A DNA stretch of 64,000 nucleotides. Source: Candidatus Parcubacteria bacterium. GTDB lineage: Bacteria > Patescibacteriota > Minisyncoccia > Phycocordibacterales > CAIZLB01. The DNA lies in contig JBDKLC010000006.1 in the NCBI GenBank assembly GCA_039795775.1, positions 3,772 to 67,771 of the forward strand, written 5' to 3'. Below, in pieces: positions 3,760-22,917 of the stretch (positions are counted from its first letter, which is position 1; the number at the start of each line of letters is the position of its first letter). The notes under the pieces are model-generated. The model searched no databases. It was not told the DNA's origin and saw only the letters and a list, made by a program, of their open reading frames with translations. The position numbers were made by a program, and so were the translations under genes.

Positions 3760-3794
3760 GAGTAGATTATATCAAATCTGAGAACCCTCTCGCT

Positions 3795-5312
3795 TTATTC
3801 TGCCTTTTGTTTTTCTATAGCCTTATCCACTTCATCCAAATCACTCTCAATTGCCTCTTTAATTTCTTTTTCTTCCTTTGATAGAGTACGAGTATGTCGA
3901 GTACGTTGTAATATCTCGAGATGCTTTTCAAGTCGTTTTTTCAATGAGATAAGTACTTTTGTTGTATCTCCTTTCACCAACGCATTACGTGTTATAAATT
4001 TGTTTCGAAGCTTCGTATAGTGACGTCCGAGTTTGAATGCACCCAGTATCAATATTATAAGTCCACATACCGTTATGATCGCAAAGTAGATGGCAGGGAT
4101 ACTGAATGACCCAACAGTAATGAGTAGTGGTTGTTCAGATGAAGTAGTTGGCTGTACTGGTTCTGGCAAGCGATTCACCATAGGTGATACATTGAAAGTT
4201 CCGAGAGCATCGACACTATTACCAGCACGATCGAACGCGAGCAATTTTACGGTATTGTCACCAACAGTATTTACTTCAATACTGTACTTCCCGTTTACAA
4301 ATTCTGAAGAAGGAACCTGCTTCATCAATACATCATTGACGAATATTTCATAGTGATCCAATCCAGAAGTTTCGTCTACGATATCAGAGTCAATATTCAA
4401 CACTCTCTTTTGTTCATCATAAGAAAATGTGACGTCATTCTTTTGTGGAACAATACTATCTATTCGAGCAATGTATGTACTTGTTGGACCCCACACCCCA
4501 TCTTTACGTGCTCGAACTTTGAAATACCATGTTCCATCTTTCAAATCCTGAACTGATTTTTGATTTATAGCTGGACTATACGCTACTCGAGGTGACCCAG
4601 ACGTATTATTATCAATACCCGTTTGTACTGCGTCTACTCCTGTCGGTACTTTCCATCTAAACAAAGGATTGTTATCTTTGTACCATAATTCCTGAGAAGG
4701 ATGCGTTGGTGATGTAATTTGCAAAGATGCAGTTGAAAGAGCTGATGATGGAGCAGGAGTTGGTGCTGGAGTTGGAGTTGGAATAACAGGAACTGCAGGC
4801 TCCTCCTTCTTATCAATAGCTATTGTTTTACCTCTTTTACTTGTAAGAACGTCAGTACCTAGGCCGTCATTTGCTCGAATAGCTGCATCTGAAAAAATAA
4901 GATCAGCTTTACCTGGAGCCTTAGCTTTTACAACAATAGATAACGCTGTGCCGTTTGAACCTGTGAATCCAGGAGTTGGAACGCCCCCATTGAAGGTAAT
5001 AACGCCTGTTAAATTTGAATATGATGGTTCTTCTACCCACAAAGAAAATACCGAACTACCTTTGCTTACAGAAACTACTTCTAACAAATCTTTTGGGAAG
5101 ATGATTTTTGCTTCTGCGTTGTTTATTGCAACACCTTCTGAATTTATCACCACAGACAAAGTCATAATGCTTCCAGGTGACAATGTAGCAGCATTTGAAT
5201 TGATCTGCATTGTCGCAGCATCAGCACTACTGTATCCAAAACAGAATATAAGAACAGCGAGTAGAGTTATGAGATGTGCTATTTTATTTTTTATCATTTT
5301 TTTTAAGTCCAT
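3795..5312 (-). CDS. Membrane-anchored cohesin-domain protein with FN3/Ig-like middle region, Pro/Thr linker, C-terminal TM helix and coiled-coil tail
   Basis: An N-terminal signal peptide. The domain ATMQINSNAATLSPGSIMTLSVVINSEGVAINNAEAKIIFPKDLLEVVSV...ALSIVVKAKAPGKADLIFSD matches the type-I cohesin pattern (PGDTVRIPVRF...VLEIIEIEPG...ATIVAKVKEGAPNGLSVIKF). A PTPTPAPTPAP linker and a C-terminal hydrophobic helix LITVGSFSIPAIYFAIITVCGLIILILGAF are present. The start overlaps the upstream gene, consistent with translational coupling. Confidence 0.55.
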   Translation of the reverse strand: MDLKKMIKNKIAHLITLLAVLIFCFGYSSADAATMQINSNAATLSPGSIMTLSVVINSEGVAINNAEAKIIFPKDLLEVVSVSKGSSVFSLWVEEPSYSNLTGVITFNGGVPTPGFTGSNGTALSIVVKAKAPGKADLIFSDAAIRANDGLGTDVLTSKRGKTIAIDKKEEPAVPVIPTPTPAPTPAPSSALSTASLQITSPTHPSQELWYKDNNPLFRWKVPTGVDAVQTGIDNNTSGSPRVAYSPAINQKSVQDLKDGTWYFKVRARKDGVWGPTSTYIARIDSIVPQKNDVTFSYDEQKRVLNIDSDIVDETSGLDHYEIFVNDVLMKQVPSSEFVNGKYSIEVNTVGDNTVKLLAFDRAGNSVDALGTFNVSPMVNRLPEPVQPTTSSEQPLLITVGSFSIPAIYFAIITVCGLIILILGAFKLGRHYTKLRNKFITRNALVKGDTTKVLISLKKRLEKHLEILQRTRHTRTLSKEEKEIKEAIESDLDEVDKAIEKQKAE

Positions 5313-5913: not shown

Positions 5914-5915
5914 TG

Positions 5916-8900
5916 TTATTGTTTTTTAAATGCAATTGGAGTCTTCCCCCACTGGTAAAGCAAAATCGAGAAGTCTACTGAATCAACCTTTCCATCACGG
6001 TTTATATCAACACCCTGATTTTTGAATGGTGCAGAAGTTTTCCAGAATGCGAGCATTATAGAGAAATCAACTGAGTTTACCTTACAATCACCATTCAAGT
6101 CAGCTCCAGTAATCGCACATTTCATACCGGTTGGAATTGGTATTGATACTGGTGCTGGAGATGATCCGCCTCCTCCCCCGCCACCACTTCCTCCTGTGCC
6201 ACCTGTTGGTGGAGTAACTGGAGTAGTTGTAACAGCGGTGAATGATTGATTCGCTGAAGAAGAATCTGAACCGAAGAGTACCTTGAAGTGGAAGTAGTAA
6301 TTACCCGCAACAGGCACAGTTGAATTGAGTGTTGTATCGAAGTTTGCACCTGGCTGAATTAATTTTGCTGCTGTTGAACTAAAGATATCATCACCACCTC
6401 CACATTCATTTGATGAAGAATCAGTCACGCACCATGTATATTGATATTCATACGCAATAGAACCTTCGTTTGTTATTCGTACGTTTGTTGAAATTGTCGG
6501 AACAACAAGACTAGAGAAGCTCTGAATCAAAACTTGTGCAGGTGCACCTGGTGTGGCACTTACTATAGATGAAGCTGTACTTGTTCCAATAACATTCTTT
6601 GCACTAATTCTAAAGTCATATGAATTATCATTTGAGAGACTTGTGACTGTTGTTGCAGGAGTTGTTCCTACACCATCATTAAATACAGCCCATGTGCCTC
6701 CCGATGATAATTTGTATTCAATAACATAATCTGTAAGTGCTGAGCCTCCATTTGATATTGGTGCAGTCCACGAAAGATCTATACTGCTGTCTTGTACTGT
6801 TGCAGCAAGGTTTGTTGGTGCGCCTGGAATAGTCGCTGGTGTGACGCCACCACTTGAACCTGAAGACACACTTGTTCCAAGTGCATTTGTTGCTGTCACT
6901 GTGAATGTATATGTTACGCCATTTGTAAGACCATTCATGACAATTGAGTTTGTCGAACTTGTTGCTGTAAAGCCACCTGTGTTTGATGTCACTGTGTAGT
7001 ACTGAATCGCTGATCCATTTGAAGCTGGTACTGACCATGTCACACCGGCACTTTGATCACCAATTGTTGCGGCTACGTTTGTCGGCGCATCAGGTACAGT
7101 GGCTGGTGTTACTGAGTTTGAAACCACAGACGCTGTACTTGTACCAAGTGCGTTTGTTGCTGTCACTGTAAATGTATATGCCTGGCCATTTGTAAGACCA
7201 GTCACAGTTATTGGTGAACTTCCTCCTGATGCAGTGAAGCCACCAGTGTTTGAAGTCACGGTATATGAAGTGATCGCAGAACCTCCGTTTGAAACTGGTG
7301 GTGTAAATGTAATTGTTGCTTGGCCGTTTCCGCTCACGGCTGTGACACTTGTTGGCGCATCAGGCGCTGTAGCTGGTGTCACTGAGTTTGATGCCACAGA
7401 GGCTGTACTTGTTCCAAGTGCATTTGTTGCTGTTACTGTAAAGGTGTATGTTGTTCCATTACTAAGTCCACTTACAATCGCACTTGAAGTTGTTGTTGTA
7501 GCGATAAATCCACCAGTATTTGATGAAATAGTGTAAAGAGTGATCGCAGAACCTCCATTTGAAACTGGTGCTGTAAATGAAATTGTTGCTTGACCATTTC
7601 CTGAGACAGCTGTTACCGATGTTGGAGCATCAGGCACGGTGGCTGGTGTTACTGAGTTTGATGCCACTGAGGCACTACTTGTTCCCACAGCGTTTGTTGC
7701 AGTAACAGAGAAAATATATGCTGTACCATTTGAAAGTCCTGTAATTGTGATTGGAGAGTTACCACCAGACACACTAAAGTTTCCAATATTTGAATTCACT
7801 GTGTAGTACAAAATAGTTGATCCACCATTTGATACTGGTGGTGTAAATGTAATTGTTGCTTGGCCGTTTCCTGAGACAGCACTTACAGATGTTGGAGCAT
7901 CAGGCACTGTCGCTGGTGTCACAGAATTTGAAGTTCCAGATACTGTACTTGTTCCCACAGCGTTTGAAGCTGTCACAGTAAATGTATATGTTGTGCCATT
8001 ACTAAGTCCTGTAATAGTGATTGGTGAATTTCCACCTGTTGCAGTGAAGCCACCAGTGTTTGATGTCACTGTGTAATACGTAATTGCAGAACCTCCGTTT
8101 GAAACTGGAGCTGTAAATGAAATTGTTGCTTGGCCATTACCACTCACGGCTGTGACACTTGTTGGTGCATCAGGAACAGTGGCTGGTGTTACAGAATTTG
8201 AAGTTGCAGATGGTGTACTTGTTCCCACACTGTTTGTCGCTGTAACAGTGAATGTATATGTTGTTCCGTTTGTAAGACCTGTGATTGTGATTGGTGAACT
8301 TCCGCCTGTCGCTGTAAATCCTCCGACATTTGATGTCACAGTATATGAGGTAATCGCTGAACCTCCATTTGATACTGGTGCATTGAACGTGATAGTTGCC
8401 TCCCCATTTCCACGCACAGCTGTAACACTTGTTGGTGCGTCAGGAACTGTGGCTGGTGTTACTGAGTTTGAAGCCGTTGAACTCGCACTTGTTCCCACCG
8501 CATTATTTGCTGTGACAGTAAATGTGTATGTTGTTCCATTTGAAAGTCCTGTCACAACAATCGGTGATGAACCTCCTGTTGCGGTAAAGCCTCCAATATT
8601 TGATGTCACCGTGTATGAAGTGATCGCTGCGCCTCCATTTGAAACAGGAGCAGTGAATGAAATTGTTGCTTCGCCGTTGCCTCGTACTGCACTTACACCT
8701 GTTGGTGCACCTGCAACAGTTGCTGGTGTTACTGAGTTTGAAGTTGCAGATTGAGTACTTGTTCCGTATGCATTACTTGCTGTGACAGTGAATGTGTATG
8801 TTGTTCCGTTTGTAAGTCCAGTGATTGTGATTGGTGACGAACCGCCTGTTGCTGTAAAGCCACCTGTGTTTGAAGTCACTGTGTAATATGTAATGGCTGA

Positions 8901-11900
8901 ACCACCATTTGAAACAGGAGCAGTGAATGAAATTGTCGCTTCACCATTTCCTGAGACAGCACTTACGCCAGTTGGTGCACCTGGAGTAGTTACAGGCATA
9001 ACAGAATTTGATGCAATTGATGGAGAACTTGTTCCGACTGCATTTGTTGCTGTCACAGTAAAGTTATATGTTGTGCCGTTTGTTAGACCTGTTACAACCA
9101 CTGGTGATGCTCCGCTATGCACTACAAATCCTCCTGTGTTTGAAGATACTGTGTAATAAAGTACGGATGAGTATCCATCACTTGCTCCTGGTGTGAATGT
9201 TACTGTAGCTTCTCCATTCCCAGCTGTTGCAACACCAATAGTAGGTGCATCTGGAACAGTGGCTGGTGAAATTGAATTACTTGCAACTGATGCTGAGCTT
9301 GTACCCACAGCATTCGTTGCTGTCACTGTGAATGTATATGCCTGACCGTTTGTAAGACCAGTCACGATGAGTGGTGATGAAGTACCGGATGTTGTAAGTC
9401 CACCTGTATTTGAAGTAACTGTGTAGTACAAGATACTTGATCCGCCATTTGAAACAGGAGCAGTGAATGAAATTGTTGCTTGGCCATTTCCTCGAACAGC
9501 AGTGATGCTTGTTGGTGCATCAGGAACTGTCGCAGGAGTTACAGAATTTGAAGCTGTTGATGCAGTACTTGTTCCAACACCATTTGTTGCTGTCACTGTA
9601 AATGTGTATGCCTGACCATTTGTAAGACCTGTGATTGTACGTGGTGAACCATTACCTGAAGCTGTAAATCCTCCAGTGTTTGAACTTACTGTGTAATACG
9701 TAATCGCTGAACCTCCGTTTGAAACCGGTGGTGTAAATGTGATTGTGGCCTGACCATTTCCTGAAACAGCTGTGGCCCCAGTTGGAGCATCAGGAACAGT
9801 AGCTGGTGTCACAGAATTTGAAACTGAAGATGCAGTGCTTGTTCCTGCACTATTTGTCGCTGTTACAGTAAATGTATATACCTGACCGTTAGTGAGACCT
9901 GTCACAACAATCGGAGATGAACCTCCTGTTGCTGTAAAGCCTCCAGTGTTTGATGTCACTGTGTAATATGAAATTGATGCTCCTCCATTATCAACTGGTG
10001 GTGTAAATGTAATTGTCGCCTGGCCATTTCCTGCTACAGCGGTTACTCCTGTTGGTGCATTTGGCACTGTCGCTGGTGTTACAGAATTTGTTGTGGCAGA
10101 TGCAGTACTTGTTCCAGCCGCATTAGTTGCTTTCACTGTAAATGTATATGTCTGACCGTTTGTGAGACCTGTCACAACAATCGGTGATGATCCGCCTGTT
10201 GCTGTAAATCCTCCAGTGTTTGATGTCACTGTGTAGTACAAGATACTTGATCCACCGTTTGATACTGGTGGTGTAAATGTGATTGTGGCCTGACCATTTC
10301 CACCAGTTGCTGTTCCAATTGTTGGTGCATCAGGGATAGTCGCTGGAGTGACAGCATTACTTGTTGCAGAAGAAATACTTGTTCCGTTTGCATTTGTTGC
10401 TGTGACTGTGAATGTATATGTTGTGCCGTTTGTTAATCCTGTGATTGTAATTGGTGATCCTCCACTTGTTGCAGTAAAGCCACCAGGACTTGATGTAACT
10501 GTGTAAGATAAAATTTGTCCCCCTCCAGTGTTTGCTGGTGGAGTGAATGTGATTGTTGCTTGGCCATTTCCTGCTACAGCAACAATATTTGTTGGAGCAT
10601 CTGGTGCAACTTGATAATTAAAATATGGATATGTGACTGCCTCATCAATGTTCCAAATTGGAAGAGTTGTGAAATCCCAATTCGTAAATGTCGCCTGAGC
10701 TTCCATCTGTGTCGTTGTCTTTCCAGAAGTGTTTGTAGGAGTTGTCGCATTTCCTGCTCCATCTGTTTTTCCAGAAGTTGTAGTATCCCAATAACTTGAT
10801 GCCCATGTTCCACTTACTGGGTTACCTACAATTCCTCCTGCATATTGAAGTAACCCAGATGAACCTGTTGCACCTGTACTTCCATTACTTCCTCCTGTTC
10901 CACCAGTTCCTGCACTACCTCCGGCACCTCCGACTGCTCCAGAAGTTTTTGTTGCTGTCGGAACACCAGCTGAGTATGCATTAGTAACAAGAGAAGTTGC
11001 ATGACTTCCCAAAAGCCCTCCGACAAATGCACTAGCACCTGCACCTCCGATTGTTCCGTTTCCTCCGTTACCATTTGCTCCAGCAATTCCTCCTCCAGCT
11101 GCTCCGCCGTTTCCACCAGCGCCACCGGCCCCTCCAAATCCAGCAGACCCTGCTGTTGCAGTAACGTTACCAAGAGCATATGCGTTTGTAATTGTTCCAG
11201 TGTTATCTCCAACAAGTCCTCCTCCTGTCACAGCACCACCAGCGCCTCCAGTACCTCCAGATAAACCTGGTTGACCAGCACCACCGTTACCTGAACCACC
11301 AGATCCGCCCACACCTCCACTGCCTCCTTTTCCTCCAGTTCCTCCAGCAGCACCATTTCCTCCTGTCATTGTTACTGTTGTTGATGCATAGCTGTTACTA
11401 AAAGATCCAGTAGAAATGTTAGAACCAATAAGTCCTCCGGCAATACTTGCTCCACCAGTTCCTCCACCTGATCCTCCAGCGGCAGCTCCTCCGGCTCCTC
11501 CGGCAAGAGTTCCACCATTTCCTCCAGTTCCAGATGTACCTCGTACCCCTGCCGCTCCTCCGTTGCCTCCAACTGTTGTAACGGTGCCAGCTGTCCAAGA
11601 ATTTGATACAACTCCAGCCGTAAAGTTATAACCGATAAGACCTCCAGCATGTAATGCACCACCGTTTCCTGCATCTGCAGTTACACCTTGGTTACCACCT
11701 GCACCTCCAGCACCTGTTGCTCCACCAGTTCCTCCGTTACCTCCATTTCCTCCGTTTCCGCCCGCGCCTCCAGTAGCACCAGTAACTGAAACAGCACCAA
11801 CTGAGTAAACCGTTGAAATTGTACCGAGGTTATACCCTGTAAATCCACCACCGTATTTAACACCGCCAGCAGCACCAGTAGCACTTGCACCGGCATTAGC

Positions 11901-14900: not shown

Positions 14901-17900
14901 TGTAATAGCAGCTGCACCTCCAGCTCCTCCTGCACCTCCCGCACCTCCAATATGGTTTGTACCTAATGATCCATCACCACCTGCTCCACCAACGCCTCCA
15001 GCTCCTCCGTTACCACCGACAGCAGTCACGCTGGTTGTGGCGTACGAATTTGTAATACTTGCAGAAACAGCTGTAACACCATTTCTACCAACGAGTCCTC
15101 CAACAGAAACTGCACCACCAACACCTCCAGCTGCACCTGTACCTCCAGCTGCAGCAGTACCGTTTGTAATAGATCCCGAAGCACCTCCGGCTCCACCGGC
15201 ACCACCATTTCCTCCATTTCCACTTGTTGCAGTAACAGAACCACCAACATGATATGAGTTCAAAATTGCAGATGTGTTGTCACCAACCAATCCTCCGGTG
15301 AAGTTAACACCTCCAGCTGCGCCAATAGTTCCAGAGGTTCCAGCTGTACCAGCTACAGAAGAACCCCCAGCTCCTCCTGCACCTCCGGCACCTGAGTTTC
15401 CTCCGTTACCTGATGTTCCTTGTATAGTTCCTGATGAAAATGAATTAACAATATCACCTGAAGTTACTAAGCCAACCAACCCTCCAGTATATGACGCACC
15501 TCCAAGACCAGCTCCACCTCCAGCTCCTCCGGCACCTCCAACTTGTCCAGCTCCACCAGTTGCACCTGCTCCACCATTTCCGGCATTTCCTCCGTTACCT
15601 GCAACAACCGTAACATTTCCAGATGCTGTAGATGATGCAATTGCAACAAGTGTGTTTGTAAAACCAACAAGTCCTCCACCATATGCAAATCCTCCAGCAC
15701 CTCCAATACCACCGTTACCACCAGCTCCTCCGACAACAGCACTTATTGCAGCAGCACCCGCGCCTCCAACTTGTCCTGTTCCACCGTTACCACCATTAAC
15801 TGTGATATTCCCTGTAGCATATGAATTTACAATATTTTGTGCAGCACCAGAGTTGTAACCTTCAAGTCCTCCTGCATAAACAGCAAGACCGACAGCACCA
15901 CCTCCACCTCCAGCTCCTCCAGTACTTCCAGCTGCACCGTTTACACCTGCAACTCCTGCGCCTCCGGCTCCTCCATTTCCTGATGTTACTGTGACGTTGT
16001 TTGTTGAATAGACTGTATCGATAAGTACAGATACAAGTGAACTAAATCCAATTGCGCCGCCAGCATACACTGGACCAACAACACCGCCAGTTCCTCCTGC
16101 ACCTCCTACTCCATTTCTTCCACTTCCAGACCCACCAACTCCTCCCGCACCTCCGGTTGCTCCGACACCACCATTTCCTCCAACTGTAACAGTGATAGTG
16201 CCCCCAGTTGCACTAGATTTTTGAATATTACCGTTTCCTTGCCCAACAAGTCCTCCAATATATACTGCGCCTCCAGAAGATCCGGCGCCTCCCGCACCTC
16301 CAATTCCTCCCGCGTGACCTCCTGTGCCGAGAGATCCGTTGCCTCCAACTCCACCAACTCCACCATTTCCTCCATTTCTTCCAACAGCAGTTAGACTTCC
16401 AATAACTACTGAATCAACAATTACTCCTGAGTTATCACCCGCAAGTCCTCCTATATATGCAGCGCCACCGATACCACCAGCACCTCCGGCTCCGCCAGTT
16501 GCACCAGCACCAGCAGCAATATTTCCTGATGCTCCCGCATTTCCTCCAGTACCTCCAGTTCCAGGAACTCCACCCAACGCAGTAATAGATGTAATTGTAT
16601 AAGTCACATCATGAATTACTCCGGCATTAAATCCGAGTATTCCACCACTTGCAGCAAGTCCACCGTTTCCTCCAGCACCAGCTGCACCTCCAACACCTCC
16701 AATTGCGCCAGCTGTACTTCCGCCATTTCCTCCGTTACCTCCTGTAGCTCCGTTTCCACCAGCTCCTCCAAGAGAAGCTACTGTTCCTGTTGTATTTGGA
16801 ATTGAGATTGTTGTACCGAGTACAGTGTCGTTACCAATAACGCCTCCCGCATACGCTGCGCCTCCTGTAAAACCTGATCCACCTCCAACACCCGCAACTC
16901 CAACGACACCAGCGCCACTTGCTCCGCCATTTCCTCCGACACCACCGTTTCCTCCGGCGCCTCCATTTGCATACACACTTCCACTTGCATATGAATCAGA
17001 TGCAACTGATCCCGAGTTAAAACCAACGAGACCTCCTGCAGCTGCGACACCTCCAGAAACTCCGGCACTCCCTGCTACACCTGTACCTCCACTGAACGCA
17101 CCAGTCGAAGAACCTCCTGAACTACCTGCAAGACCATTTGCACCAGCACCTCCAGTCGATGTTGCGTTACCACTCGCGTATGACGCTCCTTGAATAATTC
17201 CGTTTGTAGAGTTGAATCCAATCAAACCACCTGCATATGCGACACCACCCACGTTTGTTCCTGCTGCACCAGCTGCACCTCCTGCTCCTCCAGCAGAAAA
17301 GCTACTTGCTCCACCGTTTCCTCCAGAACCGTTTGAACTTCCAGCGCCACCAGTTGCAATAGCATTTCCTGTTGCGTAAGAATTATTTATTACACCTGTA
17401 TTGATTCCCACAGCGCCTCCGGCATAACTCGCTGCACCAACAACACCAATACCACCAGTACCTCCAACTGCGCCTGTTCCTGCCGCACCACCATTTCCTC
17501 CAACACCTGAAGTTCCAGAAGTAGAACTCGCAAGTATAAATGAGTGAGAATTATTTATTGTTCCCGCAGAGTTAAAAGCAATTATTCCTCCGGCGTATCC
17601 AATGGCGCCAGCTCCACCTGCTCCACCAGTTCCACCGATTGCACCAAGCGCTCCTGTTCCAGCAGTTCCTCCAGCGCCTCCATTTACTCCGGCTCCTCCG
17701 TTACCTCCAATAACAGTTGCAGCTCCAGATTCAATATATGTATTTATAATAATTGCTGTGTTTAATCCTGCGATACCTCCGGCATATCCAACTGCACCCG
17801 CACCACCAGCACCTCCAGCGGCTCCTGCAGCACCAGTACTTGAAGATCCTCCTGTAGCATTACTTCCACCAAGCCCTGCTGCTCCTCCATTTGCTCCAGC

Positions 17901-20900
17901 AGAAGCTGTAGCAGAAATAATTCCACTTGCGTAAGAATTTTGAATTGTGTTTGTGTTGTTACCGACAATTCCTGCAGCATATGCAATTGCTCCTGCACCT
18001 CCGGCTCCACCGGCACCACCCACGGCTCCTGCACCAACAAATGTTCCTACTGATGCTCCACCGTTTCCACCAATTCCTCCAACCTGAGCAATTCCGGCAA
18101 CTGAAGTTATATTTCCAGTTGAATATGAAGAAGCTTGAATAACACCAGCACTCTGTCCAACAACACCACCTGCTGTTGAAACGGCGCCAGCACCGCCCGC
18201 ACCGGCTGTTGCACCAACACCTCCCGCAAAGTTTGTTCCACCAACACCACCATTTCCTCCGTTACCAGCAGTACCTCCATTACCAGCATCCACAATAATA
18301 TTGCCTGTATTGTAACTTGCAGAAACAGTTCCCAACACGATGTTACCTGCAACACCTCCACCAAAAGCAGCACCGCCAGTTCCTCCAGCAGCTCCTGCTC
18401 CACCTGCACCTCCAGTGTTTGAAGTTCCAGCACCACCATTTCCTCCGTTACCACCAGCTCCACCGTTTCCTCCATAAGCTGTGATAGTACCTGATGAATA
18501 TGAATTTGAAATTTCACCGTTGTTCAAAAAACCAACAACACCTCCAACATATGAAATACCTCCAGTTGATCCAACACTTCCAGCAACTCCTGCAACACCC
18601 GTAGTAAATGAATACCCATCACCACCACTTGCACCTGCACCTCCGGCACCAGATGTACCTGTTACGTCTCCTGTTGAATATGAATTTAAAATAGATGTTC
18701 CTGTATTGTGTCCAACCACACCACCGGCATAAACGATTCCTCCTCCGACAGCAGCTCCTGCTGCACCTCGTGTACCTCCAGTCCAAGCACCTCCAGCACC
18801 TCCCACTCCCGCAGCACCGCCCGCTCCTGCTGTTCCAGTGATTGCACCTGTTGTATGAGAACTATTAATTATAGAAAGAGTGCTGTTACCTGCAATTCCA
18901 CCAATATATAAAATACCTGCAGCCCCTCCGGTACCTCCAGCAAGTCCAGCGAGTCCTGTCTGTGCAGCGACTCCAGTTCCACCTGTTCCACCAGCACCGG
19001 CTTGGCCAGTCACAGCATTTGTAGACGAAGTATTTTGAATTACTCCCGTATTACTTCCAACAAGGCCTCCAGCATATGTAGCAACTACAGCAGCAGATCC
19101 TCCAGTTCCAGATGCACCTCCGGCACCAGATGTACCAGCTGAACCTTTTGCTCCTCCTGCTCCACCTATTCCACCAGTTCCTCCAGCACCACCAGTCACA
19201 GTAACAAGTCCAGTAGTTGAACTTGCAGAAGTAATTATTCCAGAATTTAATCCAACAAGTCCACCCGCATATGCTGCTCCTCCAGCTCCACCGTTTCCTG
19301 CGGCACCTCCAGCACCTCCAGTTCCAGAAGTTGTTAATGCAGCACTACCTCCTGCACCTCCGGCTGTTCCGTTTTTTCCAGCAGAACCTGTAGCAGTAAC
19401 AGCACCCGTTGCATAAACAGTAGATGATGCACCAGTAATAACTCCTGAAATACCATTTTGTCCAACCAATCCTCCGGCGTATGCAATTGCTCCAGCTCCA
19501 CCAGCACCTCCGGCTGCAGTTCCACTTGATGCTGCAACAGCTACTGAAGCTGCTGCTGATGCACCACTTGCGCTACCGGCTGAACCATTACCCGGTGTTC
19601 CACCAAATGCTTGCACAATACCTGTTGCATAACTTCCGTTCAGGATTGTGCCAGAGTTGTTTCCAGCAAGACCTCCGGCATACGCTGTTCCAGCTGCTCC
19701 ACCAGCAGCTCCTAATGCACCAAGCCCACCAATGTTTGCACCTCCGACACCAGTTCCAGCGTTACCTCCGTTACCAGCTGTTCCTGCATTTCCTCCCGCT
19801 CCACCTCTTGCTGTTACATTTCCAGTACTAAAAGAAGTTGAAACTGTTCCCGCTTGAATCCATCCGACAATTCCACCGACATATGCAATGTTACCCGCAC
19901 CGGCGCCTCCGGCTGCACCTCCGGCTCCACCGATACCAGTTCCAACTCCTGCAACAGAACCGTTTCCTCCATTTCCTGCGTTACCACTTGCACCTCCAGC
20001 TCCACCTGTTCCAACAACTGTTGCAGAACTTGTTGCAGTTGTAATACTTCCTTGTTGAGAATATCCGACAACACCTCCAACATATGCAAGACCTCCGGTT
20101 GCAGCAGCGTTGTTTGCCGCCGCTGCACCAGTTCCTCCTGTAGTTGCACCGGTTGTTGTGTTACCTCCGTTTCCACTATTTCCTCCGGCACCTCCTGATC
20201 CTCCTACACCGTTAATAGTTCCGGCAACACTTACATTTGTAATTGTTCCTGTGTTGTATCCAACCAAACCTCCCAAATACAAAGTTGCTCCAGCAGTACC
20301 GGCTCCACCAGCTGTACCACTTGTCGGTGTTGCACCATCTGATCCGTTTGTACCGGTTGTACCAACTGTGCCTGCAGTACTTGTGGCAGAAATAGAAACA
20401 CCAGAGAGAGTTACATCTTTAATAAGGTTTGTAGAATATCCAAAAAGACCGACATAACTCGACGTTGTTGTACTGATATACAAATTATTAATCGCAAAGT
20501 TGTTACCATCAAAAATACCTGCAAATGGAGTTGCGACGTTACCGATTGGATCAAACCCAACACCAGAACTCCAACCACTTGTAGTAGCGGCATCAATATT
20601 GTTATTGAGTTTAAATGAGCTCGACAAGTTTGTCTTCATTCCCTGCAAACCATACACATCAAAAACAATAAATGGATCTGAACTGATTCCAATTCCTGTA
20701 TATCGTCGGAATGTTCCAGCTGTGATAGAAAAACTTCCTGATACTGACAATGTGTTTGTTCCAGGATCAGTGGCAGTAAAAGTCGCCGCAGAAACTTGTG
20801 CATAGTTTCCAGATTGTCCTCCGGAATTTGTAATTGTAAGGTTAGCGTTTTGGAGAATAGTGCCTGTAAAACCATTAATAGTGAGAGAGCCTATAGTTCT

Positions 20901-22175
20901 CGCACTATCTATAGTAGCTGTCACAGCCGCGCCTCCTGATGTAGCATCGAAGAAAACGTTTGTTGTGGCATCAGGCAAGTTACCAGCTCCTGGCGCACCA
21001 CCCGATGTTGCTGCCCAGTGGTTTGCAGCATCAGACCAGTTTCCAGAGCCACCAACCCAATACGCATTTGCTGGTGGGTCAGTAATAAAATCGATATCTA
21101 CATTTCCAATAACTTTTAAATCAAATACGTCTGTCGATGTAGCAAGTCCAGAAAGATTGATTCGATACTTACCGTCCTGGTTAATAGTTGCAAATGTTCC
21201 GACGAGTGTTCCATCGAGTGTATACACTTCTATAGTTGCTGGTAGATTTGCATCCGTTGGTCGTGCATACAATGTTATGTCTCTTGTACTATCAAGTGGT
21301 TGTTCAAAAGTAACACGTACATACTGACCATCTAAAATACTTACATAATTTCCATCGCGCACTCCCACACCTGAGAAAATATCTTCAATACTATTTTTAT
21401 CTGCATCAAGTCGCAATGCATTCGAAATTAAAATAATCTGGAAAGTTTGTGTTGAAAGGTGTGGAACAATCCATGCGAGGTGATCAATATATCCATCACC
21501 ATCTTCATCAGTTGCGACAAACTGAATGTCTTCATTTCCATTGTTCTGCCATTTAATTTTTATCTGACTTTCTTGACCCACTTTAAAAATTTCTGGTATT
21601 TCTGTTTTTACAGGAACATCAGTCAAGTGTGCAATTAAGTCTTGTTCTGGTGTCGACGCAACAACCACAACTTTTCCGGCTGCATTATTTTCTTCTGTGA
21701 TGATTACTGATGATGTTGCAAAACTTGTTGTAGTGGTTGCACTTGTTGAAGTTGTTGAAGTTGACTCAAATGAACCGCCTGCAGTTACCCCATTAGAAAT
21801 AGGTGCAGATGAAGTAGACATTAAAAGTGCACTTTCTGTACTTGTTGAAATATCTTCTGCTGGAGTTGATGTAGAACTTGAAGAACTGTTTTCAGTAGGT
21901 GTCGATGTTGCTGTAGATGTAGAGATATCTCCAGTGTTTTCAGTTGTTGTAACTGGAGTGTCTGACACATCTGAAGTGTCAGAAGTGTCTTCTGCTGGAG
22001 TTGTCGGTTCAGGTACAGAAACAGTGTCAGTCGCTGGTGAAGAAACTTCAGGCACAGTTGCTTCTACGACAGGAGTTGGATCTTCTTCAGCAAATGCGGT
22101 AGAGAAAAAACCGCAAAATATAATTGCTGAGATTAAAAAAACAAATAACTTTTTGCGACGTGTCTGTGCGTGCAT
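5916..22175 (-). CDS. Giant secreted surface fibre/adhesin-like protein (5,419 aa): signal peptide, Ser/Thr/acidic stalk, beta-helix-like N-domain, ~50 GLUG-like Gly-rich repeats, 15 FN3 repeats, unknown beta module, C-terminal dockerin
   Basis: A single uninterrupted ORF. The N-terminus MHAQTRRKKLFVFLISAIIFCGFFSTAFA is a signal peptide. Repeats follow the pattern Y[AV]GG[LIV][VIA]G.N.G.I.NSY[AS]TG.V, spaced by GGAGG/GNGG runs. Fifteen ~90-aa repeats follow the form PDAPT..TAV.GNGQATI.FT.PVSNGGS.I..YTVTSNTGGFTATGG.SPI.ITGL.NG..YTFTV.A.N..GTS. The last ~65 aa read DLNGDCKVNSVDFSIMLAFW...DINRDGKVDSVDFSILLYQW, a duplicated Ca-binding dockerin signature. Confidence 0.85.
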   Translation of the reverse strand: MHAQTRRKKLFVFLISAIIFCGFFSTAFAEEDPTPVVEATVPEVSSPATDTVSVPEPTTPAEDTSDTSDVSDTPVTTTENTGDISTSTATSTPTENSSSSSTSTPAEDISTSTESALLMSTSSAPISNGVTAGGSFESTSTTSTSATTTTSFATSSVIITEENNAAGKVVVVASTPEQDLIAHLTDVPVKTEIPEIFKVGQESQIKIKWQNNGNEDIQFVATDEDGDGYIDHLAWIVPHLSTQTFQIILISNALRLDADKNSIEDIFSGVGVRDGNYVSILDGQYVRVTFEQPLDSTRDITLYARPTDANLPATIEVYTLDGTLVGTFATINQDGKYRINLSGLATSTDVFDLKVIGNVDIDFITDPPANAYWVGGSGNWSDAANHWAATSGGAPGAGNLPDATTNVFFDATSGGAAVTATIDSARTIGSLTINGFTGTILQNANLTITNSGGQSGNYAQVSAATFTATDPGTNTLSVSGSFSITAGTFRRYTGIGISSDPFIVFDVYGLQGMKTNLSSSFKLNNNIDAATTSGWSSGVGFDPIGNVATPFAGIFDGNNFAINNLYISTTTSSYVGLFGYSTNLIKDVTLSGVSISATSTAGTVGTTGTNGSDGATPTSGTAGGAGTAGATLYLGGLVGYNTGTITNVSVAGTINGVGGSGGAGGNSGNGGNTTTGATTGGTGAAAANNAAATGGLAYVGGVVGYSQQGSITTATSSATVVGTGGAGGASGNAGNGGNGSVAGVGTGIGGAGGAAGGAGAGNIAYVGGIVGWIQAGTVSTSFSTGNVTARGGAGGNAGTAGNGGNAGTGVGGANIGGLGALGAAGGAAGTAYAGGLAGNNSGTILNGSYATGIVQAFGGTPGNGSAGSASGASAAASVAVAASSGTAAGGAGGAGAIAYAGGLVGQNGISGVITGASSTVYATGAVTATGSAGKNGTAGGAGGSAALTTSGTGGAGGAAGNGGAGGAAYAGGLVGLNSGIITSASSTTGLVTVTGGAGGTGGIGGAGGAKGSAGTSGAGGASGTGGSAAVVATYAGGLVGSNTGVIQNTSSTNAVTGQAGAGGTGGTGVAAQTGLAGLAGGTGGAAGILYIGGIAGNSTLSIINSSHTTGAITGTAGAGGAAGVGGAGGAWTGGTRGAAGAAVGGGIVYAGGVVGHNTGTSILNSYSTGDVTGTSGAGGAGASGGDGYSFTTGVAGVAGSVGSTGGISYVGGVVGFLNNGEISNSYSSGTITAYGGNGGAGGNGGNGGAGTSNTGGAGGAGAAGGTGGAAFGGGVAGNIVLGTVSASYNTGNIIVDAGNGGTAGNGGNGGVGGTNFAGGVGATAGAGGAGAVSTAGGVVGQSAGVIQASSYSTGNITSVAGIAQVGGIGGNGGASVGTFVGAGAVGGAGGAGGAGAIAYAAGIVGNNTNTIQNSYASGIISATASAGANGGAAGLGGSNATGGSSSTGAAGAAGGAGGAGAVGYAGGIAGLNTAIIINTYIESGAATVIGGNGGAGVNGGAGGTAGTGALGAIGGTGGAGGAGAIGYAGGIIAFNSAGTINNSHSFILASSTSGTSGVGGNGGAAGTGAVGGTGGIGVVGAASYAGGAVGINTGVINNSYATGNAIATGGAGSSNGSGGNGGASSFSAGGAGGAAGAAGTNVGGVAYAGGLIGFNSTNGIIQGASYASGNATSTGGAGANGLAGSSGGSSTGAFSGGTGVAGSAGVSGGVAAAGGLVGFNSGSVASDSYASGSVYANGGAGGNGGVGGNGGASGAGVVGVAGVGGGSGFTGGAAYAGGVIGNDTVLGTTISIPNTTGTVASLGGAGGNGATGGNGGNGGSTAGAIGGVGGAAGAGGNGGLAASGGILGFNAGVIHDVTYTITSITALGGVPGTGGTGGNAGASGNIAAGAGATGGAGGAGGIGGAAYIGGLAGDNSGVIVDSVVIGSLTAVGRNGGNGGVGGVGGNGSLGTGGHAGGIGGAGGAGSSGGAVYIGGLVGQGNGNIQKSSATGGTITVTVGGNGGVGATGGAGGVGGSGSGRNGVGGAGGTGGVVGPVYAGGAIGFSSLVSVLIDTVYSTNNVTVTSGNGGAGGAGVAGVNGAAGSTGGAGGGGGAVGLAVYAGGLEGYNSGAAQNIVNSYATGNITVNGGNGGTGQVGGAGAAAISAVVGGAGGNGGIGGAGGFAYGGGLVGFTNTLVAIASSTASGNVTVVAGNGGNAGNGGAGATGGAGQVGGAGGAGGGAGLGGASYTGGLVGLVTSGDIVNSFSSGTIQGTSGNGGNSGAGGAGGAGGSSVAGTAGTSGTIGAAGGVNFTGGLVGDNTSAILNSYHVGGSVTATSGNGGNGGAGGAGGASGSITNGTAAAGGTGAAGGVGGAVSVGGLVGRNGVTAVSASITNSYATTSVTAVGGNGGAGGVGGAGGDGSLGTNHIGGAGGAGGAGGAAAITLAASVQAGGLVGQNILGTITTSYAQTGTVTATGGNGGAAALGGTGGIGTGSAVYGVGGAGAAGGAGGAVYAGGLVGYTTGVIEAASFSKTSLIVTGGSGVNGSAGISAGANTGAAGSVPGAGGASGIIYAGGLAGYSTADVISSYASFDAGSGKGNITVTGGSAGNGGNAGNGGSGLAAGGVGGAGGLGTAGVGGASSGAFAGGLIGFSSGVITSSYADTLTISGTEQNGGNGGTGGNGGAGVGANNGGVGAVGGAGGAGGIRAFGGLVGDYLSTIGSIQGGSYSTVHISVTGGNGGNGGAGGTGGTSGSGQSSGTAAVAGVGGVGGAGAATYGGGLVGRITGTTQVMQINNSYATGNISVTSGTGGNGGAGGVGGNGSTGSSTHAGATGGLGGVAGVGGEADAGGLVGFSNLTTGSIDYISVYATGFASSTGGNGGTQGTGGNGGASASGAAGGAGGGAVLTPPAGGAAYAGGLIGIHRITTTPAQSDITGSYSTGLVSARGGVGATGNLGGNGGTGGTIGGAGGAGGASGIGGEADAGGLVGLTSVTTGFIHYVNNYSTTGSVTATGGASGNGGSAGTSTAGGAVAAAGGATGASGASAAGGAAYAGGLVGQANATASNNLQITTSYSTRAVNAVGGASGNGANGVIGGAGGTAAIGGVGGAGGASGAGGAAYAGGLIGTNGTAALAGGGIIESVSYATGNVTSTSGNVGTAGTGGAGGASTSGTVTTGAAGGTVGTTGAGGASYAGGLVGINAATGVILNSYATGSVTSLARNGGQGGTGGNGADASLSAGIGGPGATGGAAGAGGDSYAGGLIGYNVNALNTITTSYAVGTTVTGTSGNGGQGGTGGNGGAAGIASTGGAGGSAGAAGAAGTLYVGGLIGRNDGTVQLNSYSTSNVVGTAGTGGTGGTGGNGANGAVGSGGAGANGGLGGAATSGGAGGIGYGGGFIGRNETTRIVKDSYSTGSLTLSGGAGGNGGIAGNGGNGGNGVFAGNGGAGANAGASATGAAGGVKYGGGFTGYNLGTISTVYSVGAVSVTGATGGAGGNGGNGGNGGTGGATGAGGAGGNQGVTADAGNGGALHAGGLIGYNFTAGVVSNSWTAGTVTTVGGNGGAAGVRGTSGTGGNGGTLAGGAGGAAAGGSGGGTGGASIAGGLIGSNISTGSFSNSYASTTVTMTGGNGAAGGTGGKGGSGGVGGSGGSGNGGAGQPGLSGGTGGAGGAVTGGGLVGDNTGTITNAYALGNVTATAGSAGFGGAGGAGGNGGAAGGGIAGANGNGGNGTIGGAGASAFVGGLLGSHATSLVTNAYSAGVPTATKTSGAVGGAGGSAGTGGTGGSNGSTGATGSSGLLQYAGGIVGNPVSGTWASSYWDTTTSGKTDGAGNATTPTNTSGKTTTQMEAQATFTNWDFTTLPIWNIDEAVTYPYFNYQVAPDAPTNIVAVAGNGQATITFTPPANTGGGQILSYTVTSSPGGFTATSGGSPITITGLTNGTTYTFTVTATNANGTSISSATSNAVTPATIPDAPTIGTATGGNGQATITFTPPVSNGGSSILYYTVTSNTGGFTATGGSSPIVVTGLTNGQTYTFTVKATNAAGTSTASATTNSVTPATVPNAPTGVTAVAGNGQATITFTPPVDNGGASISYYTVTSNTGGFTATGGSSPIVVTGLTNGQVYTFTVTATNSAGTSTASSVSNSVTPATVPDAPTGATAVSGNGQATITFTPPVSNGGSAITYYTVSSNTGGFTASGNGSPRTITGLTNGQAYTFTVTATNGVGTSTASTASNSVTPATVPDAPTSITAVRGNGQATISFTAPVSNGGSSILYYTVTSNTGGLTTSGTSSPLIVTGLTNGQAYTFTVTATNAVGTSSASVASNSISPATVPDAPTIGVATAGNGEATVTFTPGASDGYSSVLYYTVSSNTGGFVVHSGASPVVVTGLTNGTTYNFTVTATNAVGTSSPSIASNSVMPVTTPGAPTGVSAVSGNGEATISFTAPVSNGGSAITYYTVTSNTGGFTATGGSSPITITGLTNGTTYTFTVTASNAYGTSTQSATSNSVTPATVAGAPTGVSAVRGNGEATISFTAPVSNGGAAITSYTVTSNIGGFTATGGSSPIVVTGLSNGTTYTFTVTANNAVGTSASSTASNSVTPATVPDAPTSVTAVRGNGEATITFNAPVSNGGSAITSYTVTSNVGGFTATGGSSPITITGLTNGTTYTFTVTATNSVGTSTPSATSNSVTPATVPDAPTSVTAVSGNGQATISFTAPVSNGGSAITYYTVTSNTGGFTATGGNSPITITGLSNGTTYTFTVTASNAVGTSTVSGTSNSVTPATVPDAPTSVSAVSGNGQATITFTPPVSNGGSTILYYTVNSNIGNFSVSGGNSPITITGLSNGTAYIFSVTATNAVGTSSASVASNSVTPATVPDAPTSVTAVSGNGQATISFTAPVSNGGSAITLYTISSNTGGFIATTTTSSAIVSGLSNGTTYTFTVTATNALGTSTASVASNSVTPATAPDAPTSVTAVSGNGQATITFTPPVSNGGSAITSYTVTSNTGGFTASGGSSPITVTGLTNGQAYTFTVTATNALGTSTASVVSNSVTPATVPDAPTNVAATIGDQSAGVTWSVPASNGSAIQYYTVTSNTGGFTATSSTNSIVMNGLTNGVTYTFTVTATNALGTSVSSGSSGGVTPATIPGAPTNLAATVQDSSIDLSWTAPISNGGSALTDYVIEYKLSSGGTWAVFNDGVGTTPATTVTSLSNDNSYDFRISAKNVIGTSTASSIVSATPGAPAQVLIQSFSSLVVPTISTNVRITNEGSIAYEYQYTWCVTDSSSNECGGGDDIFSSTAAKLIQPGANFDTTLNSTVPVAGNYYFHFKVLFGSDSSSANQSFTAVTTTPVTPPTGGTGGSGGGGGGGSSPAPVSIPIPTGMKCAITGADLNGDCKVNSVDFSIMLAFWKTSAPFKNQGVDINRDGKVDSVDFSILLYQWGKTPIAFKKQ
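5919..6130 (-). other. Dockerin module (two calcium-binding repeats) at the C-terminus of the giant protein
   Basis: DxNxDGxVNSxDxxxL appears twice, separated by about 22 aa, with a Gly-rich linker upstream. Confidence 0.6.
6560..10640 (-). repeat. Tandem coding repeat array: 15 fibronectin-III-like units, 270-bp period, high inter-unit nucleotide identity
   Basis: The string ggtgcatcagg(a/c)acagt(g/c)gctggtgt(t/c)ac recurs every 270 bp (about 6826, 7096, 7366 ... 10593). The protein carries 15 in-frame FN3-like units. Confidence 0.8.
10810..20460 (-). repeat. Gly-rich GLUG-like repeat array (~50 units of ~40-60 aa) encoded by GGN-codon-rich DNA
   Basis: About 50 occurrences of the YAGGLVG.N.G.I core are separated by GGAGGAGG/GNGGNGG tracts. 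The plus strand is correspondingly CCN-rich, which generates spurious Pro/Ala ORFs. Confidence 0.75.
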
Positions 22176-22915: not shown

Positions 22916-22917
22916 TA

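Follow-up and report, generated by a model that had tools for sequence, protein, structure and literature searches.

The DNA analysed here, a 64-kb stretch that we call the window, comes from a metagenome-assembled genome annotated as Candidatus Parcubacteria, in agreement with the CPR-like source that an initial annotation of the sequence had suggested. Three open reading frames lie on the minus strand at the coordinates where that annotation had placed them; they encode a giant protein of 5,419 amino acids and two small membrane proteins of 209 and 505 amino acids (Table 1). The tight coupling of the two small genes to the giant gene was also found: the stop codon of the giant is separated by a gap of 2 nt from the ATG of the 209-aa gene, and the 209-aa and 505-aa genes overlap by 29 nt, or by 14 nt when counted from the second ATG. 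No link to the cohesin-dockerin system described below was seen for the two genes that precede the giant (22343..23619), the promoter and terminator scans were uninformative, and the Rfam and tRNA scans gave nothing related to the three-gene cassette.

Table 1. Features of the three-gene locus, with positions in the window and residues of the encoded proteins.
Feature	Position	Strand	Basis
Giant-protein gene (cargo)	5916..22175	-	Uninterrupted 16.3-kb ORF, 5,419 aa; ORF list and sequence
Giant: Sec-type signal peptide, residues 1-29 (RRKK, hydrophobic core, AFA|EE)	22089..22175	-	Sequence, hydropathy
Giant: GLUG-like Gly-rich array, ~52 repeats of ~60 aa, residues ~561-3800	10776..20495	-	Motif spacing, Pfam Glug
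Giant: FN3 array, 15 modules, residues ~3861-5235	6471..10595	-	Profile matches, 90-aa period
Giant: C-terminal dockerin, residues 5353-5419	5919..6119	-	Pfam, PDB sequence matches
Cohesin 1 gene, 209-aa type-I membrane protein	5284..5913	-	ORF, model, hydropathy
209-aa protein: predicted cohesin-fold domain, residues 28-161	5431-5832	-	AlphaFold model, Foldseek
209-aa protein: TM segment, residues ~184-203	5305-5364	-	Model, hydropathy
Cohesin 2 gene, 505-aa type-I membrane protein	3795..5312	-	ORF, model, hydropathy
505-aa protein: predicted cohesin domain with N65 and R146, residues 33-166	4815..5216	-	Model, fold match, covariation
505-aa protein: two beta-sandwich stalk domains resembling DUF7743/FN3 and Big_13, residues ~197-375	4188..4724	-	Profiles, model
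505-aa protein: transmembrane helix, residues ~397-428	4029..4124	-	Model, hydropathy
505-aa protein: conserved, charged, helical cytoplasmic tail of 77 aa, residues 429-505	3798..4028	-	Model, hydropathy, orthologues

The giant had been described as a GLUG/FN3 protein exported by Sec, and its signal peptide and both repeat arrays were recovered. Its hydropathy profile shows a single hydrophobic segment, that of the N-terminal signal peptide, and no other TM segment. The GLUG-like repeats follow the consensus YAGGLVGxNxGxIxNSYxTGxVT plus a Gly-rich stretch and probably form a beta-solenoid shaft; the local GC content of 0.50 and GC skew of -0.36 result from this repeat stretch. Pfam Glug (PF07581) scored above its cut-off on a 159-aa fragment (24 bits vs 20.5, three stretches). 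Pfam and NCBIfam searches with long pieces of the giant (1000-2800 aa) missed the motif, probably because of the composition filter of HMMER. The FN3 modules, 15 in number, keep a strict 90-aa period. No catalytic domain was found in the giant by a Pfam-type profile search, which bears out the non-cellulolytic character claimed for it.

The gene is highly repetitive, and in some related assemblies the ORF that precedes the cohesin genes is shorter (for instance 358 aa in L008, 856 aa in L019), perhaps through collapsed repeats or frameshifts, so that the giant ORF might be regarded as an assembly artefact or a decaying pseudogene. However, no stop breaks the 16.3-kb reading frame, which starts with a proper signal peptide and closes with the C-terminal module, its repeats are divergent, and orthologues from independent metagenomes were called at 5301 and 5075 aa and share both the dockerin and the genes downstream. 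We consider this explanation extremely improbable. Because the FN3 repeats are only 72% alike at the DNA level and independent orthologues exist, the giant ORF is not an assembly artefact.

Dockerin and cohesin modules

The C-terminus of the giant carries a duplicated dockerin, including both of the segments that the initial annotation had quoted. This module scored 36.9 bits (E 4.3e-9) with Pfam Dockerin_1 (PF00404, type I), well above the cut-off of 22.9, and phmmer matched it to the PDB sequences 2yik (5e-6), 2y3n_B (1e-5) and 1daq (4e-4). Its two Ca-binding segments, DLNGDCKVNSVD-FSIMLAFW and DINRDGKVDSVD-FSILLYQW, are arranged in tandem with about 22 residues each, and each is followed by a predicted helix, FSI[ML]L..W. 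In both segments, the Ca ligands D1/N3/D5/N-D9/D12 are kept in 69-77 of the 77 orthologues. This is the sole dockerin in the 64-kb window, and the matches of a word-indexed homologue search with this module alone were all contig-edge fragments.

For the two small proteins, the cohesin assignment was decided by fold comparison, not by sequence searches. When the AlphaFold model of the 209-aa protein (pLDDT 86.9) was compared with the PDB by Foldseek, the top 49 matches were all cohesins (E ~1e-5, target TM up to 0.74). In the 505-aa model, residues 33-166 matched type-I cohesins with TM 0.71-0.79, rmsd 2.5-3.2 Å and identity up to 23%, and the top fold match of this protein was 2w1n (cohesin plus FN3). 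Both small proteins are thus predicted by their models to adopt the cohesin fold, a nine-stranded jelly-roll beta-sandwich, and the type-I cohesin-like sandwich proposed for them agrees with these best PDB matches.

On the sequence side, the 505-aa protein scored 19.3 bits (E 0.0014) with Pfam Cohesin (PF00963), below the cut-off of 24.1, and the 209-aa protein gave no match. The profile check suggested by the initial annotation therefore succeeded for the dockerin and failed for the cohesins of the window. Orthologues of the 505-aa protein pass this cut-off (27.6 and 25.5 bits), and hhalign recognises the 505-aa and 209-aa cohesins as homologues of one another (99%, E 5.8e-18). When the small proteins were compared with PDB sequences by HMM search, as single sequences and as family profiles, all cohesin matches were sub-significant; with the family profiles, cohesins were among the top matches at E of only 0.06-0.35.

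Each small protein was thought to consist of a signal peptide, a cohesin-like sandwich and one C-terminal TM anchor, and these elements were present in both, but the description was incomplete for the 505-aa protein, which also has two further beta-sandwich domains and the 77-aa tail. By hydropathy, the 505-aa protein has a signal-like segment at its N-terminus and a single C-terminal TM segment. The 209-aa protein consists, in order, of a signal peptide, the cohesin-fold domain, a linker of ~20 aa, the TM segment and a basic tail, and the invariant residues of its family lie on strands 3, 5, 6 and 8 (strands numbered by order); the dockerin-binding face of cohesins is formed by strands 8-3-6-5.

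Recurrence and covariation of the dockerin-cohesin pair

Within the Parcubacteria group, the cassette is near-universal and spans many candidate phyla. Of 80 species-level loci from this group, 76 have a dockerin-ended ORF upstream of one to three cohesin genes, and in 72 of those 76 the ORF lies within 400 nt of them. The cytoplasmic tail of the 505-aa type is conserved across related loci. The length of the cargo ranges from about 290 to >5,000 aa, and in many lineages the cargo is merely ~290-600 aa of Ig-like domains. All 10 upstream proteins that were sampled (about 290 to 1575 aa) passed the Pfam Dockerin_1 cut-off, and their N-terminal parts differ (Big_6, Big_13, MG2). A published description of the cassette was not found in a literature search with cohesin and dockerin terms. 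One Nomurabacteria locus (L078) encodes an adaptor-like protein with cohesin and dockerin together.

Considering that the cohesin and dockerin modules are closest to type I, and that the adaptor-like protein of L078 combines both, a true cellulosome-type complex for polysaccharide degradation was weighed. On the other hand, neither the giant nor any of the 10 sampled orthologous cargos yielded a glycoside hydrolase, a CBM or any other catalytic domain, each anchor protein has one cohesin with no multi-cohesin scaffoldin, and the 64-kb window has a single dockerin. We judge the chance of such a complex to be negligible.

Position 10 of the dockerin, the recognition position in both segments, covaries with N65 and R146 of the 505-aa cohesin. 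Dockerins with S/S at this position are paired with N,R in cohesin 2 in 40 of 42 cases, those with I/L/V are paired with A,L (20/20), and those with A are paired with S,R (3/3). A dockerin Ser goes with Asn at the N65 position of the cohesin, Leu/Ile with Ala, and Ala with Ser. Among the 518 columns scanned, which comprised cohesin 1, cohesin 2 and the stalk domain, N65 is the sole column with perfect separation of the three classes and low entropy within each class; the statistical weight of this covariation is limited because the three states fall into three clades and represent ~2-3 evolutionary transitions.

N65 is located on strand 3 of the cohesin-2 domain. Its counterpart in C. thermocellum CipA cohesin 2 (1OHZ) is Asn37, and that of E67 is Asp39, in a local hhalign alignment that is weak and covers strand 2/3 only (E 0.0044, 44 columns), the global mode having given nonsense. 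R146, at the end of strand 8, was assigned as the strand-8 equivalent by manual motif alignment only. In the C. thermocellum cohesin, Asn37, Asp39, Gly123 and Ala125 contact the Ser/Thr motif of the dockerin, and a cohesin mutant made hydrophobic at these residues (N37L, D39T, G123L, A125L) bound a dockerin mutant in which Ser/Thr had been changed to Ala/Leu (PMC5772552). The natural switch from Ser to hydrophobic residues in the Parcubacteria pairs has the same direction as those mutants.

The two small proteins had been proposed as alternative tethers, and an equivalent role of the two was not supported, as clear specificity covariation with the dockerin was seen only for the 505-aa type. 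For the 209-aa cohesin, the covariation was no stronger than that of the stalk-domain control, in a comparison where one candidate position was fixed by the scan pattern that had found the loci.

These results also bear on the possibility that the dockerin-like module binds no neighbouring cohesin and is a Ca2+-binding or glycan/wall-binding module instead, the small membrane proteins being merely co-transcribed as independent surface proteins or as assembly/secretion helpers. Such a reading would fit the sub-threshold Pfam scores of the window's cohesin-like domains and the Saccharibacteria protein SEML1_0315, which has a dockerin domain and is essential, yet has no cohesin neighbour. It would also fit the strongly conserved loop motifs FxGGxPxGF and NDGxGT of these cohesin-like families, which are not known from classical cohesins. 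However, the adjacency of dockerin and cohesin genes is near-universal, the cohesin fold was matched, and the three-state covariation of position 10 with the Asn37-equivalent residue was shared by none other of the 518 columns. Accordingly, we regard the absence of binding as improbable.

Proposed tethering and comparison with known systems

In our interpretation, to which we give a probability of roughly three in four, the three genes form a surface-display cassette that is based on a cohesin-dockerin pair of non-cellulosomal type. The cohesin-dockerin tethering put forward in the initial annotation gains support from the dockerin-to-cohesin gene order and from the interface-specific covariation. 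In the best reading, a variable, non-enzymatic surface protein is tethered, and the 505-aa protein would be its main receptor. The giant, which itself lacks a membrane anchor, an LPXTG motif and an SLH domain, would be exported by Sec, and its Ca2+-binding dockerin would plug into the cohesin module that forms the outermost part of the 505-aa protein. This receptor would rise on its two beta-sandwich domains and a Pro/Thr linker above one TM helix and the conserved cytoplasmic tail, and the plug would hold a fibre ~100 nm long on the cell, made up of an N-terminal tip domain, the GLUG-like shaft and the 15 FN3 modules. Recognition may take place through the canonical type-I interface, where position 10 of either of the near-identical dockerin segments would touch the cohesin at N65 on strand 3 and near R146 on strand 8. 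Binding would depend on Ca2+. The 209-aa protein would be a second, membrane-proximal cohesin, which most likely takes hold of the dockerin while the C-terminus is emerging from the translocon, or else binds to the second, symmetric face of the dockerin.

The biological role is likely adhesion to a host cell or a substrate because the cargo has no catalytic domains. With the same tethering, the cassette could serve as a general component of the envelope or surface layer, for example by anchoring a surface-lattice or spacer protein, and not for host attachment. The near-universal occurrence of the cassette and the conserved tail of the 505-aa protein are in line with such a component, and the short Ig-like cargos of many lineages look structural and not like specialised adhesins. 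However, the size and domains of the cargo vary widely between lineages, as expected of adhesins under diversifying pressure, no evidence for lattice-forming domains was found, and the cargo contains GLUG and FN3 arrays, which are typical of adhesin-like surface proteins. We therefore hold the envelope role to be rather unlikely, at a chance well above that of the absence of binding.

Starting from the tethered adhesin, a wider picture can be drawn, which we offer tentatively and as a whole. The cassette might be a conserved, modular plug-and-socket mount of the Parcubacteria group for host-contacting surface proteins, in which the cargo (290 to >5,000 aa) is freely exchangeable. A single position of the dockerin, together with one or two residues of the cohesin, would set the specificity, in three naturally occurring codes (Ser↔Asn/Arg, Leu/Ile↔Ala/Leu and Ala↔Ser/Arg). 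The cohesin close to the membrane might capture the emerging C-terminus, while the distal cohesin bears the load and reports via its cytoplasmic tail.

Parcubacteria-group bacteria are mostly uncultured and have small genomes, and to our knowledge their attachment to hosts or surfaces is largely unknown. The cassette is a strong candidate for holding large surface proteins because it recurs across many related uncultured lineages, and it would represent a widely conserved molecular handle that consists of a TM-anchored cohesin receptor, a dockerin plug and a variable cargo. Recombinant domains would allow the proposed tethering to be tested without a culture of the organism, and the natural three-state specificity code provides built-in mutational predictions. 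Protein engineering might also gain orthogonal cohesin-dockerin pairs from the cassette, which would extend cohesin-dockerin biology to the display of giant non-enzymatic fibres on membrane anchors in monoderm ultra-small bacteria.

Among known systems, the type I pairs of C. thermocellum, namely CipA Coh2/Xyn10B Doc (1OHZ) and those of the single-cohesin anchors OlpA and OlpC (3ul4, 4dh2), share the same fold (TM 0.65-0.79), the duplicated Ca-binding segments, the proposed recognition at positions 10/11 and a near-symmetric dockerin, as well as the counterparts of N65 and E67 in CipA Coh2. In contrast, the sequence identity is only ~10-23%, the window cohesins are sub-threshold in Pfam, and the cargos of C. 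thermocellum are enzymes whereas the Parcubacteria cargo is non-enzymatic. OlpA and OlpC are bound to the wall through SLH domains and are not membrane-anchored. Cohesin-dockerin pairs outside cellulose degradation are known from the glycosidase/toxin complexes of C. perfringens (2w1n, 2jh2, 2vo8, 2ozn) and from the Archaeoglobus fulgidus cohesin (2xdh). Pairs of that type join soluble secreted enzymes, whereas in Parcubacteria a TM-anchored receptor would hold a giant non-catalytic fibre, and the genes form a fixed operon in a cassette conserved across the whole superphylum.

The 'dockerin-type' giants of Omnitrophota resemble the present giant in having dockerin-related Ca-binding repeats, in occurring in ultra-small bacteria and in their proposed role in attachment. 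They differ in exceeding 30,000 aa, with many internal dockerin/TSP3 repeats and a C-terminal TM anchor of their own, and the passages considered describe no separate membrane cohesin receptors (bioRxiv 10.1101/2023.11.21.568195). Within Patescibacteria, SEML1_0315 of the epibiont Southlakia epibionticum, an envelope protein rich in Ig/FN3 domains, contains a dockerin domain and is essential in co-culture (PMC10633639). This saccharibacterium belongs to a different class from the window organism; membership of SEML1_0315 in the same cassette was ruled out, its neighbours being a hydrolase and a tRNA, with no adjacent cohesin genes.

A precedent for the tethering of an adhesin is provided by R. 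flavefaciens, where CttA-XDoc is bound to the surface-anchored ScaE (PMC5301203). As in ScaE/CttA (and ScaB), a non-enzymatic, adhesion-type protein with a C-terminal dockerin would be held by a single-cohesin protein, both partners are encoded in the same gene cluster (PMC5301203), and the ScaE cohesin (2zf9) was among the fold matches of the 209-aa model. Sortase links ScaE covalently to the wall (LPXTG), whereas the Parcubacteria anchor is a TM helix, and CttA has an X-module and dockerin insertions, whereas the Parcubacteria dockerin is a plain, symmetric type-I-like module. Finally, the R. flavefaciens system works in a cellulose context, whereas the Parcubacteria cassette has none and comprises two cohesin proteins with a cargo of up to 5,419 aa.

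The giant protein and its dockerin

The three open reading frames of the initial annotation were all found exactly where it had placed them, and their features are collected in the table.

Features of the giant gene, its neighbours and related sequences (positions along the window, except for locus L078)
Feature	Position	Strand	Description
Giant (cargo) gene	5916..22175	-	one unbroken translation, 5,419 residues
Signal peptide			giant N-terminus; Sec-type; sole hydrophobic segment of the entire protein (hydropathy)
N-terminal region			Ser/Thr-rich stretch after the signal peptide, then a region without assigned domain
Repeat region			~52 repeats of ~60 aa, YAGGLVGxNxGxIxNSYxTGxVT plus Gly-rich stretch (motif spacing)
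FN3 array			15 modules, strict 90-aa period
Linker region			between FN3 array and dockerin; small beta-rich region and poly-Gly linker
Dockerin tail	5919-6140		giant C-terminus
209-aa protein (cohesin 1)	5284..5913	-	
505-aa protein (cohesin 2)	3795..5312	-	
Cytoplasmic tail of 505-aa protein	3798-4028	-	residues 429-505; 77 residues, conserved, highly charged, helical
GC-rich segment	10000-20000		GC 0.50 vs ~0.39 elsewhere; GC skew ~-0.36
tRNA-Ser	62376-62467	+	
tRNA-Ser	62642-62731	+	
~250-aa ORF of L078	9523-10269		Ca. Nomurabacteria chromosome CP060229.1; similar ORFs at L067, L083, L086

The repeats of the giant reached the Pfam GLUG cut-off only in the scan of a short fragment; when long pieces were scanned, the GLUG motif was not detected. 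Domain scans found no catalytic domains in the giant, nor in ten sampled orthologous cargos. The GC rise and skew of the GC-rich segment are due entirely to the Gly (GGN) codons of the minus-strand repeats; the segment is not a foreign island. The giant frame is unlikely to be an assembly artefact: it is unbroken, its FN3 repeats are just 72% alike at the DNA level, and independent metagenomes contain orthologues, called at 5,301 and 5,075 aa, that share its C-terminus and are followed by the same two genes. Elsewhere in the window, ARAGORN assigned the unusual anticodon ACT to one of two adjacent tRNA-Ser genes and the normal GCT to its neighbour.

The C-terminal dockerin already proposed for the giant passes the Pfam gathering score (36.9 bits vs 22.9), can be aligned to the solved cellulosomal dockerins 2yik, 2y3n_B and 1daq, and is the single dockerin motif pair in the 64-kb window. 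In a set of 77 dockerins, both segments show near-invariant Ca2+ ligands and a near-invariant helix DFSI[LM]L..W, and position 10 of each segment is the chief variable site. This is the classical recognition position, represented by Ser11 and Ser45 in the Xyn10B dockerin of C. thermocellum (PMC5772552). As a separate observation, exactly two cysteines are present in 53 of the 77 dockerin tails and none in 24. The Cys columns are shared by 36 tails (one lies 4 residues ahead of segment 1, the other 2 residues ahead of segment 2), which suggests that this pair may serve as an optional disulfide staple; the giant's tail has two Cys at other positions.

The two membrane cohesin proteins

The predicted coupling of the giant to its downstream genes agrees with their spacing, as only 2 nt lie between its stop codon and the start of the 209-aa gene, which the 505-aa gene in turn overlaps by 29 nt. 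Both small proteins have the expected N-terminal signal-like segment and single TM helix. Their assignment as cohesins was borne out in part by profile searches: the 505-aa protein fell below the Pfam cut-off (19.3 vs 24.1 bits) and the 209-aa protein had no match, whereas some orthologues of the former pass, and one is named 'cohesin domain-containing protein' by NCBI. The two proteins are homologous over ~155 residues (BLASTP E 3e-6; hhalign 99%, E 5.8e-18). The cohesin-type beta-sandwich proposed for both was matched by their AlphaFold models. For the 209-aa model (pLDDT 86.9), the top 49 Foldseek PDB matches are all cohesins. The N-terminal domain of the 505-aa model (pLDDT 79.6) superposes on type-I cohesins with TM 0.71-0.79 and rmsd 2.5-3.2 Å, and the best overall match is 2w1n, a C. 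perfringens cohesin-FN3 construct. By sequence alone these proteins are weak cohesins, and the fold is settled by the predicted models.

The cohesin of the 209-aa protein lies ~20 residues from the membrane; that of the 505-aa protein is at the far end, beyond a Pro/Thr linker and two beta-sandwich domains. The first cohesin protein of most other lineages has ~300 aa, with an extra DUF7743-like domain between cohesin and TM helix. Compared with orthologues of ~290-320 aa, this domain is lost from the 209-aa protein in the window's clade, and the loss places its cohesin near the membrane. The cytoplasmic tail of the 505-aa protein (consensus LLKKRLEKHLEILQxTRHxRILTKEEKxIKEAIExDLDEVD) matched no family; for a surface anchor, such a conserved intracellular tail may indicate a link to some component of the cell interior. 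In several proteins of 600-970 aa (P0241, P0250, P0257, P0286 and others), two stretches each match the 209-aa cohesin profile. The overlapping cohesin genes may have fused in these cases; alternatively, the gene calls may have run on through the overlap.

Distribution of the cassette and covariation at position 10

Cassette proteins are on record from a 'Candidatus Parcubacteria bacterium' MAG, and in a 1.84-billion-protein library 5,804 cluster representatives (50% identity, E ≤ 1e-3) belong to the 209-aa family. A scan that took a single genome for each GTDB species gave 80 loci, with titles that include Wolfe-, Zambryski-, Nomura-, Kaiser-, Wildermuth-, Falkow-, Kerfeld- and Moranbacteria and Paceibacteria; Kerfeldbacteria and Nomurabacteria, the two titles checked, sit within NCBI's Parcubacteria group. 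Several contigs with this cassette (L022, L024, L054, L060, L066, L073, L077 and others) bear the titles Flavobacteriaceae, Gammaproteobacteria, Pirellulales or 'uncultured Candidatus Saccharibacteria'; judged by the genes they contain, they are probably Patescibacteria contigs that were mis-binned or given a coarse label.

When HMMs from our alignments were run over all stop-to-stop ORFs of these loci, 76 of the 80 proved to have a dockerin-ended ORF upstream of their first cohesin gene, at a distance of <400 nt in 72, mostly with an overlap or a gap of a few nt. Among the remaining four, two border the end of a contig, and in one the dockerin match is below threshold. Two cohesin genes are present in 51 loci and three in 12. 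All ten upstream proteins sampled from distant loci independently passed the Pfam Dockerin_1 cut-off; these cargos range from 288 to 1,575 aa and have differing N-terminal parts (Big_6, Big_13, MG2, DUF4215). Accordingly, what is conserved is the arrangement: a secreted cargo that varies but ends in a dockerin, and behind it the membrane cohesins. In the giant, this cargo has been enlarged in a lineage-specific way, and cargos in the window's closest relatives extend past the 6-kb flank examined.

Some Nomura- and Kaiserbacteria cassettes also have, downstream of the cohesin genes, a ~250-aa ORF with a cohesin-like N-terminal domain. The ORF of L078 passes Pfam Dockerin_1 (25.3 bits) and scores 19.7 bits with Pfam Cohesin; with our own HMM, those of L067 and L083 gave only weak dockerin matches and that of L086 none. 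A dockerin cargo gene lies ~1.6-3 kb upstream at all four loci, with one gene without assignment between. A protein with both modules would follow the logic of an adaptor scaffoldin.

Mutual information was screened in 65 dockerin/cohesin-1/cohesin-2 triples, with the stalk domain as control. The top score with the dockerin was 0.51 for cohesin 2 and about half that for cohesin 1 (0.23) and for the control (0.25). The highest-scoring pairs join position 10 of both dockerin segments with N65 and R146 of cohesin 2. Ser in both segments goes with Asn and Arg at these residues (40/42 loci), Ile/Leu/Val with Ala and Leu (20/20) and Ala with Ser and Arg (3/3). Across 518 columns of cohesin 1, cohesin 2 and stalk, N65 is the sole perfect separator of the three classes that is conserved within each. 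Since each of the three states corresponds to one clade in a neighbour-joining tree, the pattern represents only ~2-3 independent transitions. The 209-aa cohesin showed no clear covariation with the dockerin in the 65 triples, where one candidate position was fixed by the locus-search pattern.

In a short, weak local hhalign match (E 0.0044) of the cohesin-2 family to CipA cohesins, N65 falls on Asn37 and E67 on Asp39 (1OHZ sequence and numbering from PDB); by manual motif alignment, R146 would adjoin the equivalents of Gly123/Ala125. These four cohesin residues contact the dockerin Ser/Thr motif, and a hydrophobic cohesin mutant (N37L, D39T, G123L, A125L) bound a Ser/Thr-to-Ala/Leu dockerin mutant (PMC5772552). 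The natural switch, from Ser with Asn/Arg to Leu/Ile with Ala/Leu, is in the same direction. Both dockerin segments keep identical recognition residues and switch jointly, which points to a possible dual binding mode or to two cohesins engaged at once.

Tethering model and comparison with known systems

The cohesin folds, the 76/80 synteny and the position 10 covariation support the initial proposal that membrane cohesins tether a dockerin-ended fibre, and we give this mechanism of cohesin-dockerin surface display a probability of about 0.75. The giant, without an anchor of its own, would be exported by Sec and held non-covalently, presumably in a Ca2+-dependent manner, by the distally placed cohesin of the 505-aa protein. 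The 209-aa cohesin, always present in the cassette, may catch the dockerin when the giant's C-terminus emerges from the translocon, or bind the dockerin's second face, roles suited to its position close to the membrane. Considering that the cargos have no catalytic domains, their role is most likely structural or adhesive. A specific function in host attachment is plausible, but we put it at somewhat less than even odds.

The dockerin and cohesin domains are not new, since public annotation pipelines already label fragments of the cassette proteins 'dockerin type I repeat-containing' and 'cohesin domain-containing'. We found no paper uniting dockerin, cohesin and Parcubacteria, nor such a cassette in titles and abstracts on dockerin with Patescibacteria or the candidate phyla radiation; as a conserved unit, with a membrane-anchored architecture and a specificity code, the cassette appears to be undescribed in the literature searched. 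An essential dockerin-domain protein of a saccharibacterium is mentioned in passing (SEML1_0315, PMC10633639), and its gene neighbourhood contains no adjacent cohesin genes. Omnitrophota 'dockerin-type' giant proteins carry their own anchor, according to a preprint (bioRxiv 10.1101/2023.11.21.568195).

A cellulosome is rejected, because the cassette has no multi-cohesin scaffoldin, enzymes or CBM, in line with the non-cellulolytic use initially suggested. In structure, its nearest relatives are type-I cohesins, among them the single-cohesin anchors OlpA and OlpC and non-cellulosomal modules from C. perfringens and Archaeoglobus. In function, the nearest precedent is ScaE-CttA of R. flavefaciens: CttA, an adhesion protein, ends in an (X-)dockerin, to which the sortase-anchored, single-cohesin protein ScaE from the same gene cluster binds (PMC5301203). 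The cassette differs from these known systems in its TM anchoring, its two or three cohesin genes, its conserved cytoplasmic tail, its cargo of up to 5,419 aa and the non-cellulolytic, ultra-small bacteria that carry it.
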